NCBI GenBank assembly: GCA_964016885.1 | Contig: CAXHJY010000514.1 | Coordinates: 1 to 64,000 of the forward strand | Direction of reading: 5' to 3' | DNA: 64,000 nucleotides | Source of the DNA: Eledone cirrhosa | Taxonomy: Eukaryota | Part shown: positions 3,151 through 36,926 of the stretch, one piece after another | Position numbering within the stretch: position 1 is the stretch's first letter | Layout of the letters: each line of letters starts with the position of its first letter | The notes under the pieces: model-generated | The model's input: only the letters and a program-made list of their open reading frames with translations | Told to the model about the DNA's origin: nothing | Databases searched by the model: none | Translations under genes and position numbers: made by a program

Positions 3151-3874
3151 TGCAATTAGTTAAAGATGTACATCCATATATGTATACTGAAATACTAGTA
3201 TGTATATATATATATATATGCAATTAAGTTAAAGATGTACATCCATATATGTATACTGAAATACTAGTATATATATGAATACACACACGTATACATATGT
3301 AGATGTACCAAGTCCCTTCACTGGTCACTCTACTGTGAGCGGCCAGTCACTCTGTACGTAAACACACAGACAAACCGGTTTTTTAGAGTCATACTGGTTT
3401 TTGAGGAAACACCTTTGCTCTATTCTCCAGAAAGCCAGACAAGGAATATTGAACTAGTTTCGTTGTTGTTACAACTCATCAGCAATATTTACCTATCTTC
3501 CGGCCTTTCTAGAGAATCGTAAAAGTACATATCGTTAAATGCTTTTTCTATGAAAATTAGTAGTGGGCAGACTAATTTGCATAGAGTGTGAGTAAGTACC
3601 GGTTCAACGGAGACGATAAAAACAAATAACGAAACGAAATTAAATTTCGTTTCGTTTGTAACTCACTTTTGTATGACTGACGCTTAAACAATAAGTTAAA
3701 GATGTACATCCATATATGTATACTGAAATACTAGTATGTATATGAATACACACACGTATACATATGTAGATGTACCAAGTCCCTTCACTGGTCACTCTAC
3801 TGTGAGCGGCCAGCCACTCTGTACGTAAACACACAGACAAACCGGTTTTTAGAGTCATACTGGTTTTTGAGGAA
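3151..3874 (-). mobile_element. Non-autonomous PLE-like/retrozyme element A (about 467 bp unit, partial tandem)
   Basis: Direct repeats 3225-3408 and 3692-3874, plus a short third copy at 3151-3200. No ORF, flanked by (TA)n, contains a hammerhead motif. Confidence 0.75.
3445..3489 (-). ncRNA. Minimal type I hammerhead ribozyme
   Basis: Minus strand reads AATATTG-CTGATGA-GTTGT(AACA)ACAAC-GAA-ACTAGT-T-CAATATT: 7 bp stem I, intact core, 5 bp stem II, palindromic stem III, GUU site. Confidence 0.88.
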
Positions 3875-4986
3875 TATATATATATATATGTATATATATA
3901 TATATATATATGTATATGTATATATATATGTATATATATATATATATATGTATATGTATATATATATATATATATATATATATATGTATATGTATATATA
4001 TATATGTATATGTATATATATGTATATTGTAATAATTATATATGTATATGTATATATATATATATATGTATATGTATATATATATATATGTATACTGTAT
4101 ATGTATATATATATATGTATATGTATATATATATATATGTATATATATATATATGTATATATTATATATATATATGTATATATATATATATGTATATATA
4201 TATATATGTATATATTATATATATATATGTATATATATATATATGTATATATTTATATATATATATGTATATATATATGTATATATATATATATGTATAT
4301 ATATATGTATATATATATGTATATATATTGTATATATATATATATGTATATGTATATATATATGTATATATATATGTATATATATATATATATGTATATG
4401 TATATATATATATATGTATATGTATTATATATATATATGTATATGTATATATATATATATATATATGTATATATATATATATGTATATGTATAAATTATA
4501 TATATATATGTATATGTATATATATATATATGTATATATTATATATATATATGTATATATTATATATATATATGTATATATTATATATATATATGTTATA
4601 TATTATATATATATATGTATATATATATATATATATATATATTGTATATATATATATGTATATATATATATGTATATGTGTATATATATATATATGTATA
4701 TACTATATATATATATGTATATATATATATATATGTATATATATATATGTATATATATATGTATATGTGTATATATATATATATGTATATATGTATATAT
4801 ATATATATATGTATATATGTATATATATATAATATATATGTATATGTATATATATATATATATATGTATATGTATATGTATATATATATATGTATATATA
4901 TATATATGTAAATATATGGTATATGTATATAATATATATATATGTATATATATATATGTATATATATATATATATGTAATTATATA

Positions 4987-5851
4987 TAACTTTGAATAAC
5001 TTTGAATAACTTTGAAATGTTTTGGCCAGTATTGGTCCAGGCCATGTCTAACTTGATAGCACCACCTGGCGAAGTCTTTCAATTCAGGATTTTGGGCACC
5101 ATAGCCCATTCGAGAAGAGAATTACTGTTTGCGGAGACATATCCGGGTGGTGGGTGGTTTGTCGGGATTACTTGGAGGAATTTGTCCAAAGACTTCTTGA
5201 ATTTTGTGTGGTCAGGTTTCTGTTTTGACGTGTCCTGGTGTGATGTTGAAGAGAGCAGGCCGATTGAGGTGAAATAATTGTGCCGTATTGTTGTTATGAG
5301 TTGCGATTTAGATTTTTGAATGGGACGGATAGCACGGGGCCCAAGCCTTGGGTGTATCTTGAAGGCGATGCCAACATCATTTGGGCAGTGATGATGGAAC
5401 ATTTTCCAAATCATGCAGATAATATAACGCTCACGGCGACGTTGGAGTGAGTAAAGTTTCAGGTTTTCCAATCGACCCCAGTAGTCAAGGTCTGACATGC
5501 CATTTATCTTTTTCGTGATTGCCCTTTGAGGAGCTTCAAGTTTCATGATACTTTGTTTCGTGTGGGGAGACCACAGTGGACAACAGTATTCAATGTGTGG
5601 TCGGGCGAAAGTAGAGAGAGAGGATAATGGTGCGGGAATCTCTCGACTGGAAGGTTCTGAGGATCCAGGAACACATTCTGCGGGCCATGTCAACTTGCTG
5701 CTTATATGCGTGGTCCAGCTTATGTTGCTGTCCACGGTTACTCCCAAGTCTCTGATGTTGTTAGATGCCACGAGAGTTTCCCCGGAGGGAAGGGAGTACG
5801 GGAGTTTCAGAGCATCCTCTTTCCAAGTGGATCAGTTCGAATTTGTCTTCG
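4987..5851 (-). mobile_element. 5'-truncated CR1-group LINE (RT C-terminus, 3'UTR, tandem tail)
   Basis: ORF 5079-5771 has IRDLGVTVDS, RPHIEYCCPLWSP, LYSLQRRRER and FKKSLDKFL motifs and is frameshifted. The tail is (TTCAAAGTTA)x3 at 4987-5016. Confidence 0.85.
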
Positions 5852-8142
5852 TATATATGTATATATATAGATATATATGTAAATATATATATATATGTAT
5901 ATATATATATATATATGTAAATATATATATATATGTAAATATATATATATATGTATATATATATATGTAAATATTTATATATATATGTATGTATATATAT
6001 ATATAATATATGTATATATATATATATATGTATATATATATATTTATATATATATGTATATATATATATGTAAATATATATATATATATGTATGTATATA
6101 TATATATGTATATATATATATATGTATATATATATATTTATATATATATTGTATATATATATATATATGTATATATATATATATATATGTATGTGTATAT
6201 ATATATATATAATATATGTATATATATATAATATTATGTATATATATATTTGTATATATATATGTATATTATATATATGTATATATATATATATGTATAT
6301 ATATATATATGTATATATATGTATATGTATATATATATATATGTATATATTATATATGTATATATATATGTATATATATATATATGTATATATATATAAT
6401 GTATATATATATATGTATATATATTGTATATGTATATATATATGTATATATATATATATAGTTATATATATAGTATATTGTATATATATATATATGTATA
6501 TATTATATATATATGTATATATATATATATGTATATATGTATATATATATATATGTATATATGTATATATTATATATATATATGTATATATTATATATAT
6601 ATATGTATAATATTATATATATATATATTATATATATATATGTTATATATATATGTATATATATATGTATATATATGTATATATATAATGTATAATATAT
6701 ATGTATATGTATTATATTATGTATATATATATATATATATGTATATATATTATTATATATATAATGTATATATTATATATATATATGTATATATATATAT
6801 ATATGTATATATTATATATCTATATGTATATATTATATATATATATGTATATATATATATATATGTATATATATATATATATGTATATATATATATATGT
6901 ATATATTATATATATATATGTATATATATATATATGTATATATATATATATATGTATATATTATATATATATATGTATATATATATATGTATATATATAT
7001 ATATGTATATATATATATATGTATATATATATGTAATATATATATATATGTATATATATATATTATATGTATATGTATATATATGTATATGTATATATAT
7101 ATATATGTATATGTATATATATATATATATGTATATATATATATATGTATATGTATATATATATATGTATGTATATATATGTATATGTATATATTATATA
7201 TGTTTTTGTATATATATATATATATTTATATATATATATGTATATGTATATATATATATGTATATGTATATATATATATATGTATATATATATATATGTA
7301 TATATTATATATATATATGTATATATATATATATGTATATATATATATGTATATTATATATATATATGTATATATATATGTATATATATATATGTGTGTA
7401 TATATATATGTATATATATATATATGTATATATATATGTATATATATATATATGTATATGTATATATATATGTATATATATATATATATGTATATATATA
7501 TATATATGTATATGTATATATATATATATGTATATATATATATATGTATATATTATATATATATATGTATATGTATATATATAATATGTATATATTATAT
7601 ATATATATGTATATATTATATATATATATGTATATATTATATAATATATATGTATATATTATATATATATATGTATATATATATATATATATATGTATAT
7701 ATATATATGTATATTATATATATGTATATGTGTATATATATATATATGTATATATTATATATATATATGTATATATATATATATATATATGTATATATAT
7801 ATATATATATATGTATATGTATATATATATATATATGTATATATGTATATATATATATATATGTATATATGTATATATATATATATGTATATGTTATATA
7901 TATATATATGTAATGTATATGTATATATATATATGTATATATATATATATATATGTAAATATATGTATATGTATATATGTATATATATATATATATGTAT
8001 ATATATATGTATATATATGTAGGAGGTGAGTTTTATTGTAGTACAATAAAGCAATGCATATATCGGATAAGAAGCACTCTACAGTTTGTGGACTGGAGTA
8101 TGCATAATATAAGATCAAAAGATGGTTAAAGGAGTTCAATAT

Positions 8143-35300: not shown

Positions 35301-36012
35301 GCATACTCTGTTGGATGTGTAATAGTAATATACGGGAACGGTAAAGCATAAATGAACTAAGGGAGAAATTAGGAATAAGAGGAATCAGATGTTGTTTATT
35401 CGAGAAAAGACTACGTTGGTATGGCCACGTGATGCGCATGAAAGATGACAGCTGTATAAAAAAGTGCAAAGCGATAAAAATAGACGGTAGCTACGGAGCA
35501 GGCAGACCCAGAAAAACCTGGGTCGACTTGATAAATTCCGACCTTACACACTTACACCTCTCCAAGACAATGTCACTGGACCGAGATCTTTGGCGTTACA
35601 CAGTAATAGTGAAACCCGCCTTGCCTAAGTATAAAGCGAAACCTACAGTCGGTAGGCACCTCTAACAAAAATACAGCACCGTTCCACCACCCCACCCCAT
35701 CCACACCACGCCTTTCGATGTAAAGTTATGTTGGTACTACAACATCCAGTCCGAAATAAATGAGGTCGTGTAGGTGTCATGAAAAAAAACACACAGTCCA
35801 CGCTGTAATGTGGTTGTGTAGGTAACACGGTAAAAACCTCCCAGTCCACACTGTAAACGTGGTTGGTGTTAGGAAGTGCATCCAGCCGTATAAAACCTGC
35901 CAGACAGTCCTATGCGAGCAAGACAAACAATCTTGCCTCAAAGAGGAAAATTCCCGTCCAAACCCATGCAAGCGTGGAATATGGACGTTAAATGATGATG
36001 ATGATGATGATG
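32368..36012 (+). mobile_element. Near full-length degenerate RTE LINE (APE endonuclease + RT + PHD-like finger)
   Basis: VGTMNVG, DVCCIQETRW, IISAYAPQ, QVDYIL, NYRGIKL, MQFGF, MLHGSETW, GRPRKTW. Several stops and frameshifts. 3'UTR with (GAT)n tail. Confidence 0.95.
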
Positions 36013-36363
36013 ATATATATATATATATATATATATATATATATATATACACATGTATATATGTGTATATATATACATGTATATATATGTATGTATATGT
36101 GTGTATATATATGTATGTATGTATATGTGTGTATATGTATATATATATGTGTATATTTATATATATATATATGTATATATGTGTATGTATGTATATGTGT
36201 GTATCTGTATATATATATATGTATATGTGTGTATATATATATGTGTATATATATATATATATATATATATATATGTATATATATGTATGTATGTATATGT
36301 ATGTATATGTATATATATATATGTATATATATGTATATATATATATATGTATATATATATATG

Positions 36364-36926
36364 TTGTTATACTTGGGGAGGGTCATATTTGTGTAATATT
36401 GCCAGAATTAATAACAGAACACACTCACTGTTTGGTTGGTTTTCGCTTTTCGCCTCTGTGTCTTTTATATCGGTAATCTAATTTATTCGGTCGTCAATGT
36501 TGCCATTGACTGACCAACGGTCAAAAATAATACTCATACAATATAGACACAAACACATATATATAGTTTATCAAAGTTTTTTCGTTGCACATCTTTGGCG
36601 TAGAAAATACAATGCAACGGGAGGAAACAATAGCACCACTGACGATGTTGCAGATGTGCAACGAAAGAACTTTGGTAAACTATATATATGTGTTTGTGTC
36701 TATATTGTATGAGTATTATTTTTTACCCTTGGTCAGTCAATGGCAACATTGACGACCGAATAAATTAGATTACCGATATAAAAGACACAGAGGCGAAAAG
36801 CGAAAACCAACCAAACAGTGAGTGTGTTCTGTTATTAATTCTGGCAATATTACACAAATATGACCCTCCCCAAGTATAACAATATTTGTTTCGACACACG
36901 ATTTCATATCAAAAACCTCGTAAAAC
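36364..36926 (+). mobile_element. Non-autonomous PLE-like/retrozyme element F (inverted duplication)
   Basis: 36364-36593 is the reverse complement of 36652-36882. The hammerhead spans the spacer and the right arm. Confidence 0.7.
36635..36676 (+). ncRNA. Minimal type I hammerhead ribozyme
   Basis: ACCA-CTGACGA-t-GTTGCA(GATG)TGCAAC-GAA-AGAACT-T-TGGT. Short stem I, one extra base before stem II. Confidence 0.65.

Follow-up and report, generated by a model that had tools for sequence, protein, structure and literature searches.

Animal non-long-terminal-repeat (non-LTR) retrozymes, their RNA circles and the proposed copying of those circles by Penelope-like elements (PLEs) are all treated in the available parts of one account (PMC7229834), by which the retrozymes of coral, mussel and axolotl make circles and RtcB closes them efficiently in vitro. 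In its accessible portions, a second account (10.64898/2026.07.22.740005) proposes mobilisation by PLEs and argues that retrozymes derive from the pseudo-LTRs (pLTRs) of these elements. Among PLEs, (TA)n insertion is reported for almost all Hydra families, with a cephalopod member of this preference listed in File S1 of PMC8557442; the same paper draws a one-ended tail and includes, in the sections available, non-autonomous head-to-tail PLE derivatives in Chlamydomonas. Minimal hammerheads may act as dimers (PMC4209133, from part of that text). In vitro, a PLE protein nicks and extends both DNA strands, and two internal start sites define the tail (PMC11167929, in the excerpts at hand). How retrozymes move, and how PLEs come to insert in tandem or inverted form with a one-sided tail, are open questions, and the earlier proposals of PLE help and of a circular template came, in the portions of those accounts available, without evidence at the level of integration. 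Here we describe a family-rich stretch of the Eledone cirrhosa genome, the window, which comprises the first 64,000 nucleotides (nt) of contig CAXHJY010000514.1 in the 3.0-Gb assembly GCA_964016885.1, and in which hammerhead-bearing elements of this kind lie in a TA microsatellite.

With a probability of roughly 0.7, we conclude that the elements E1-E4 and E8 are non-LTR retrozymes whose copies in (TA)n were likely made by a PLE reverse transcriptase/endonuclease with a monomeric RNA circle as template, and that E5-E7 are truncated ends of coding PLEs. The labels E1 to E6 follow the order of six elements listed in a preliminary description of the window; E7 and E8 were not on that list, and H1 to H6 are coding Hydra-type families. 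Positions such as +80 are counted in nt from the predicted hammerhead cut. What is new is integration-level evidence for PLE-driven concatemers, each from a single template, together with a testable cis signal.

Non-coding monomers in a TA tract

TA array makes up 40% of positions 1-37600 of the window, against 1.2% of positions 37600-64000. The local density of elements, called striking in the preliminary description, is real, but the crowding is largely due to this abundance of target. TA also dominated an automated repeat search of the window and, through TA-driven microRNA matches, an Rfam scan of its whole length. The tract and the non-coding elements are as follows.

1-37600, no strand: (TA)n/(TATG)-type microsatellite tract, the insertion target
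3151-3874, minus strand: E1 retrozyme, 1.4 units of a 467-bp monomer, with a terminal duplicate of 55 bp; its end is the short site (+230)
16968-18021, no strand: E2 retrozyme, monomer of about 490-520 bp, head-to-head arms; short end on the left, long end on the right
18261-19547, plus strand: E3 retrozyme, 2.1 units of a 487-bp monomer, with a short arm in inverted orientation; an older family
24030-25041, plus strand: E8 retrozyme, monomer of about 657 bp, 1.5 units; hammerhead core decayed in this copy
26236-27240, plus strand: E4 retrozyme, 1.7 units of a 591-bp monomer; its end is the long site (+245)

The six segments first listed do lie between (TA)n-type arrays, as partial tandems and/or head-to-head inversions. 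As a list of retrozymes it was mixed: four of its six entries are right, and two elements within its span (21836-23822 and 24030-25041) had been missed, the latter being the further retrozyme E8. The segments had been called mostly unrelated, which does not hold for E1 and E2, with 298 identities over 446 aligned positions. These two also share the octamer ATGCAAAT about 100 nt upstream of the hammerhead (3580-3587, minus; 17580-17587, plus), which we take to be a possible internal promoter element. The copies in the window lack open reading frames (ORFs), as had been stated, but E5 and E6 are, as families, the ends of coding elements.

Genome searches returned 422 candidates for E1, 2,115 for E2, 2,443 for E3, 646 for E4 and 3,164 for E8, of which 40 in each family were scored; E1-E4 are multi-copy and not single-copy units. 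Exact matches to the hammerhead motif number 5,212 for E1 and 5,993 for E4, a family that includes a very young subfamily (0.06% divergence). All five families form head-to-tail arrays, closing into monomers of 467-657 bp in which the longest ORF starting with ATG encodes 24-75 amino acids (aa). The proposal that these are non-autonomous families is supported for E1-E4 by multi-copy closed monomers, the lack of an ORF, PLE-type ends and TA preference. Folded as circles and compared with 12 shuffles, the monomers gave z scores of -9.0 (E1), -11.9 (E2), -2.9 (E3) and -6.4 (E4). In one sequencing run E4 appeared as a single contig closing on itself, a result that tandem DNA gives as well; near-identical E4 and H3 sequence occurs in four runs filed under three organism codes. 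A further hammerhead monomer family, E9 (542 bp, 1,929 candidates), was seen at L237:300-970.

Are all six listed elements merely truncated ends of coding PLEs? This is true of E5, E6 and E7, and we think it very improbable for the whole set. E1-E4 and E8 close on themselves head to tail without an ORF of over 75 aa, and a Hydra protein profile found no match in the monomers tested. In position-ordered samples from contig C1, a form of pattern sampling that misses single-arm copies cut off below the hammerhead, none of 54 E4 loci and none of 14 E1 loci was contiguous with Hydra or Neptune-like coding sequence, which refutes the proposal for these two families in the samples examined; PLE coding matches close to these loci are separate neighbours.

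Coding PLEs and their truncated ends

8017-12863, minus strand: H1, Hydra-clade PLE, pLTR-ORF-pLTR plus an inverted arm, the long end being at 8017 and the short one at 12863
12764-12818, plus strand: H1 hammerhead; further minus-strand copies at 12113-12060 and 8204-8150
21836-23822, no strand: E7, 5'-truncated, inverted end of the coding Hydra family H3
near 23748-23791: E7 hammerhead-like motif, U4 changed to A
28783-29656, no strand: E5, 5'-truncated, inverted 3' end of the coding Hydra family H2
29340-29459: E5 hammerhead, with a stem II region of about 100 nt
36364-36926, no strand: E6, 5'-truncated, inverted end of a coding Neptune-like PLE
36639-36672: E6 hammerhead-like motif

H1 has the architecture of the non-coding elements, as had been noted before: a TA setting, an inverted arm and three hammerhead cores. 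Its protein carries RWK-type and DKT motifs, a CxCx5C linker, CxxC/CxH and, at the C-terminus, a GIY-YIG domain, with no CCHH. Judged by these motifs against the diagnosis and alignment in PMC8557442, H1 is a Hydra-clade PLE, inserted into (TA)n and with its hammerhead in the pLTR; the clade placement of H1, like that of the parent of E6, is by motifs. A Pfam search gave no match for the H1 protein or the Neptune-like one. The ORF of the window copy is frameshifted (frames 9997-11910 and 9445-9909), and many copies elsewhere, 99-100% identical across the query, have an open frame of 821 codons. At another place (L451-L452, C6:38070000-38088900), five or more full-length H1 units stand in tandem with a period of about 3,658 bp, which may be a rolling copy of the whole element.

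The non-autonomous status proposed for E5 and E6 fails, since both run 5' into PLE endonuclease-coding sequence, and no head-to-tail monomer arrays were found in the loci of either. A GIY-YIG C-terminus lies at most 1.5 kb upstream of E5 on the same strand in 10 of 25 loci, and the end of a Hydra ORF is present in seven of seven extended loci, mostly picked for their GIY-YIG matches. E6 loci continue into an ORF that ends about 570 nt upstream. Full copies of its parent have a 1,217-aa ORF with the E6 sequence as pLTR, and the protein shows a CX2-5CxxC linker and CCHH in the C-terminal endonuclease; by these motifs, its clade may be Neptune. H3, the parent of E7, has A in place of U4 in its hammerhead-like core; of 14,817 matches, all of the 100 listed show this.

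Hammerhead motifs

3452-3482, minus strand: E1 type I hammerhead, core to predicted cut; H17 is U in this copy
17672-17702, plus strand: E2 hammerhead; minus-arm copy at 17248-17218 with decayed core
18802-18878, plus strand: E3 hammerhead, with a 55-nt stem II region
26327-26404, plus strand: E4 hammerhead, U3-A8 core and long stem II; second copy at 26918-26995

A strict type I descriptor found seven cores in the 64 kb, compared with a mean of 0.13 per window in 30 local dinucleotide shuffles. Three lie in the PLE at 8017-12863 and one each in E1, E2 and E3; the last, at 59821 outside the span of the elements, is probably chance. E4, E5 and E6 fail this descriptor and their motifs were located by relaxed matching, their window copies folding into the three-way shape or into its stems I and II. 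Of the earlier claims, a type I hammerhead in each segment thus stands for E1-E3 by strict descriptor and for E4-E6 by relaxed motif only, and a (near-)palindromic stem III throughout does not extend to E6, where AGAACT is not palindromic and stem I is weak. The sole hammerhead among the Rfam matches listed was HH9 at 3429-3500 (E1), with 37.7 bits, below the gathering score of 52. Cores are decayed in one E2 arm and one E3 unit. An initial guess that placed the motif of E8 (24030-25041) on the minus strand was wrong; it is on the plus strand.

The E4 core has U3-A8 in place of C3-G8. Of the 5,993 matches, the first 100 listed include 99 with this core, one with U3/G8 and none with C3-G8; the variant is known from Cercyon PLEs, according to the accessible part of PMC4209133. 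Covariation of stems is seen between E1 and E2: in six aligned hammerheads, 6 of 13 pairs have changed on both sides with the core kept (score 0.497, against 0.171 when shuffled), although the independent events are few because the rows are related. In E3, a pair in the extended stem II was counted by eye among 100 listed matches as U-A in 68, C-G in 27, U-G in 4 and mismatched in 1. Motifs and covariation together point to one type I hammerhead per monomer in E1-E4 and E8.

Two fixed 3' ends

If a PLE protein inserted these elements, what trace would it have left? In the 40 best-scoring E4 loci, the end falls at +74-85 or +244-250 for 64 of the 66 arms, and (TA)n follows in 64 of 66; one long and one short outer end are combined in 24 of the 25 loci with several arms. 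The 54 position-ordered loci (one a duplicate counted twice) agree, with 80 of 84 arms ending at the same two sites and 23 of 27 adjacent head-to-head pairs being long plus short; three of the others have one other end and one is short plus short. Long plus short also accounts for five of seven E1 head-to-head pairs. Two end sites recur at about +230 and +300 in E1, +290 and +349 in E2 (where alignments often break in an internal TA run), +81 and +190 in E3, and +280 and +386 in E8. The coding Hydra families show the same two-site pattern, and the long/short rule is obeyed by the head-to-head structures of the window (H1, E2, E3, E5, E6 and E7). The 5' ends are variable and spread round the monomer. 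In every family the ends show microhomology to (TA)n, which may prime synthesis.

A bulged hairpin beyond the start sites

11903-11918, minus strand: H1 bulged hairpin after the long start site
11986-12008, minus strand: H1 bulged hairpin after the short start site
18961-18994, plus strand: E3 short-site hairpin, U-A first pair; long-site hairpin at 19076-19090
24386 and 24498-24513, plus strand: E8 hairpins
26491-26549, plus strand: E4 short-site hairpin, fold z -3.3
26656-26670, plus strand: E4 long-site hairpin

The start sites are followed on their 3' side, within a few bases, by a hairpin. Its stem has three bp (CUC/GAG or UUC/GAA, so that the first pair is C-G or U-A), a bulge of two bases lies on its 3' side, and additional pairs come after. 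When two or more inner pairs are required, the hairpin is present at 16 of 20 start sites in six Hydra families and E3, E4, E8 and E9, over a background of 3.8% in unique window DNA and 5.5% in monomers; with one inner pair it is present at 19 of 20 (background 7.8% and 14%, respectively). The motif was also used in advance. It was predicted at the long end of H3, and follows that end; a second end of E9 was predicted from the hairpin, and 12 rows end there, at +185-196. Lying 3' of the start sites, the hairpins are absent from the final unit of each insertion, so that copying from a linear template would cost one unit per generation, a loss that a circle would avoid. From this we infer why PLE-type elements would need to be tandem or circular.

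Evidence for one template per insertion

Do the units of an array descend from one template? Divergence among E1 units is 0.10% inside an array (169 pairs) and 0.83% from one array to another (1,601 pairs); between opposite arms of one insertion it is 0.13% (5 pairs), as against 1.1%. One E1 insertion has 6.9 + 12.9 units with 0 polymorphic sites, and another has 7.0 units without any; older E1 arrays have up to 12. For E4 the same comparison of distances carries no information because the sampled copies are nearly identical. Locus-specific E4 variants are nevertheless present in both arms at four loci (L281, L284, L285 and L286), and in the position-ordered set, leaving out loci below 96.5% identity, 19 such variants occur in all copies, 9 of them in both arms.

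Alternatively, solo pLTR-like units could insert singly and then expand in place as minisatellites by unequal crossing-over, a route discussed in the available parts of 10.64898/2026.07.22.740005. Homogeneous arrays are expected from this route too, and in the older E3 and E8 arrays divergence inside a locus is only a little lower than that from locus to locus (4.3 vs 5.2% and 2.5 vs 4.6%). Against it, multi-unit arms on both sides of an inversion have a single haplotype and exact PLE ends, even in the E4 subfamily with 0.06% divergence, and 37 of 84 position-ordered E4 arms are longer than one unit. We consider it improbable.

Two concatemers occur once each in the genome. At L449 (C2:61196500-61197700), the tail of H3 is repeated as 7 x 151 bp; the unit begins at the predicted cut, extends 20 nt beyond the second hairpin and contains both hairpins and no hammerhead. 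Both arms have their junction at the predicted cut (or +1), and all seven genome-wide matches to it are at this one locus, so that no multimer elsewhere can have been its source. As the H3 hammerhead, with U4 changed to A, was assigned by eye, we regard this as a single suggestive case. At L450 (C2:273375300-273379000), ORF-deleted H3 units of 407 bp stand in tandem, again in one place genome-wide (8 matches); they keep the hammerhead motif and both hairpins, and the array looks like a newborn retrozyme.

A model of copying and what weighs on it

Closed monomers without an ORF, two 3' ends, variable 5' ends, TA flanks, haplotypes and motif covariation can be read directly from the DNA; the steps that would join them are as follows. 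A tandem copy would be transcribed, and successive hammerheads, probably acting as dimers through the palindromic stem III, would release a monomer for a host ligase to close. A PLE protein dimer would then bind the two bulged hairpins and nick both strands of the (TA)n, one cDNA (complementary DNA) being started just 5' of each hairpin. Each cDNA would run round the circle for a variable number of turns, after which the two would be joined head to head, or a single arm fixed. Hydra-clade PLEs are likely the helpers of E3, E4 and E8, and the many intact H1 ORFs in the genome are candidate active ones. In the few families sampled, the likeness between monomers and pLTRs consists of the hairpin motifs and one 11-nt match (E4/H5), with none for E1 or E2; a helper for these two was not found, as they have no partial likeness to the sampled Hydra families or the Neptune-like family.

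Could PLE proteins instead have used linear RNA, either an uncleaved multimer or a cut monomer on which synthesis repeatedly jumped from the 5' to the 3' end? No covalent circle would then be needed, and the hammerhead would possibly be dispensable. We hold this to be unlikely, though well short of negligible. The 151-bp unit has no hammerhead, and its plus arm ends at the junction, as a linear template would produce. The Poseidon PLE, in the portions of PMC11167929 available, did not need hammerhead cleavage in vitro and used unprocessed RNA. Pile-up of 5' ends at the hammerhead cut is weak at best: in E4 they fall at +1/+2 in 2 of 66 and 0 of 84 arms of the two samples, and in E1 in one arm. 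A linear multimer, on the other hand, has no way to grow longer, although several haplotypes are found among the long homogeneous E1 arrays; the restriction of the 151-bp junction to one locus leaves no multimer master available, and the stems of the hammerhead have been kept through compensatory changes. Repeated jumping on a linear monomer would look the same as copying of a circle.

Other points besides these weigh against copying of a hammerhead-made circle by a Hydra-type protein. Thirty locus-specific E4 variants occur in only some units, compared with the 19 in all, and assembly polishing could homogenise arrays. Eight of nine Xenopus retrozyme dimers did not cleave, according to the accessible text of 10.64898/2026.07.22.740005. 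The circular fold of E8 is unremarkable (z -1.4), and no autonomous family, among the few sampled, matched any monomer beyond short motifs. As for the hairpin, it was first noticed by eye and the rule was later widened to UUC/GAA; four of the 20 sites fail the two-pair rule and the long site of H6 fails both rules; H4 and H5 are related; and the long-site hairpin of E4 is weak when folded alone. In E1 and E2 it is found at one of four sites, a long, weak match that looks like chance.

We give even odds to a broader form of circle copying, in which a Hydra PLE dimer on two hairpins rolls round a hammerhead-made circle and any two-hairpin circle would become a concatemer. The genome would then record both the birth of retrozymes from PLE ends, a reading that leans on the one-off 151-bp and 407-bp concatemers, and their later spread as unrelated-looking families; the cis element for circle-templated, TA-targeted integration would be as small as 150 nt. 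Young helper ORFs, young non-coding passengers and one-off concatemers are combined in this genome, and the hairpin and the long/short rule are open to the published in vitro PLE assay. If the hairpin model is true, the helper clade of a retrozyme could be named even where the two share no homologous sequence, and RNA-templated integration would have a compact signal.

Other elements in the window

4980-5861, minus strand: C-terminal fragment of a non-LTR retrotransposon, with a short terminal repeat in three copies, inside TA
32544-35617, 51081-53210 and 56922-57944: copies of an RTE-like LINE (long interspersed nuclear element) reverse transcriptase, that at 51081-53210 matching RVT_1 and PHD in Pfam
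62517-63701: open frame of 394 aa with no Pfam match, which we take to resemble a LINE ORF1

Comparison with known systems

A literature search found no paper on cephalopod retrozymes, on these families, on PLE end signatures in retrozymes or on the Hydra start-site hairpin, and the supplements of PMC7229834 and 10.64898/2026.07.22.740005 may bear on this; 'hairpin' and 'stem-loop' are absent from the main text of PMC8557442, and 'hairpin' from the text of its supplement. The families are further animal non-LTR retrozymes, and both this kind of element and the (TA)n preference of Hydra PLEs had already been described.

H1 resembles the Hydra-clade PLEs of PMC8557442 in its diagnostic motifs, the absence of CCHH, pLTR hammerheads, (TA)n insertion and a one-ended tail. 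E3, E4 and E8 have end architecture and hairpins in common with that clade and no alignable sequence. The tails of the E and H families, at 55-165 nt, compare with 30-40 nt in Hydra-clade PLEs (PMC8557442). Non-autonomous Chlamys elements such as MRC1 are likewise PLE-type, non-coding and inserted as multicopy head-to-tail arrays; in the parts of PMC8557442 concerned, they differ in being green algal and in having 3' ends that resemble those of their helpers, and most Chlamys clades lack canonical hammerheads. Poseidon of Anolis (PMC11167929), as far as the available text goes, also has two internal start sites that define the tail, uses both DNA strands and requires RNA 3' of the starts. It differs in being a coding element studied in vitro, with start sites in an AC-rich stem-loop, and neither the head-to-head rule nor concatemers feature in that text.

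The closest systems are the animal non-LTR retrozymes, which in the accessible portions of PMC7229834 and 10.64898/2026.07.22.740005 share with the present families non-coding tandem monomers with one type I hammerhead each, a GC content below 50%, a self-paired predicted circle and co-occurrence with PLEs. At 467-657 bp, the monomers here exceed the 150-450 of the former account and lie inside the 51-972 of the latter. The long stem II insertions of E3, E4 and E8 and the U3-A8 core of E4 are unlike those of the retrozymes known from these sources. Targeting of (TA)n, a pair of fixed ends, arms set head to head and a start-site hairpin shared between families are found here and do not figure in the same portions of the retrozyme papers.

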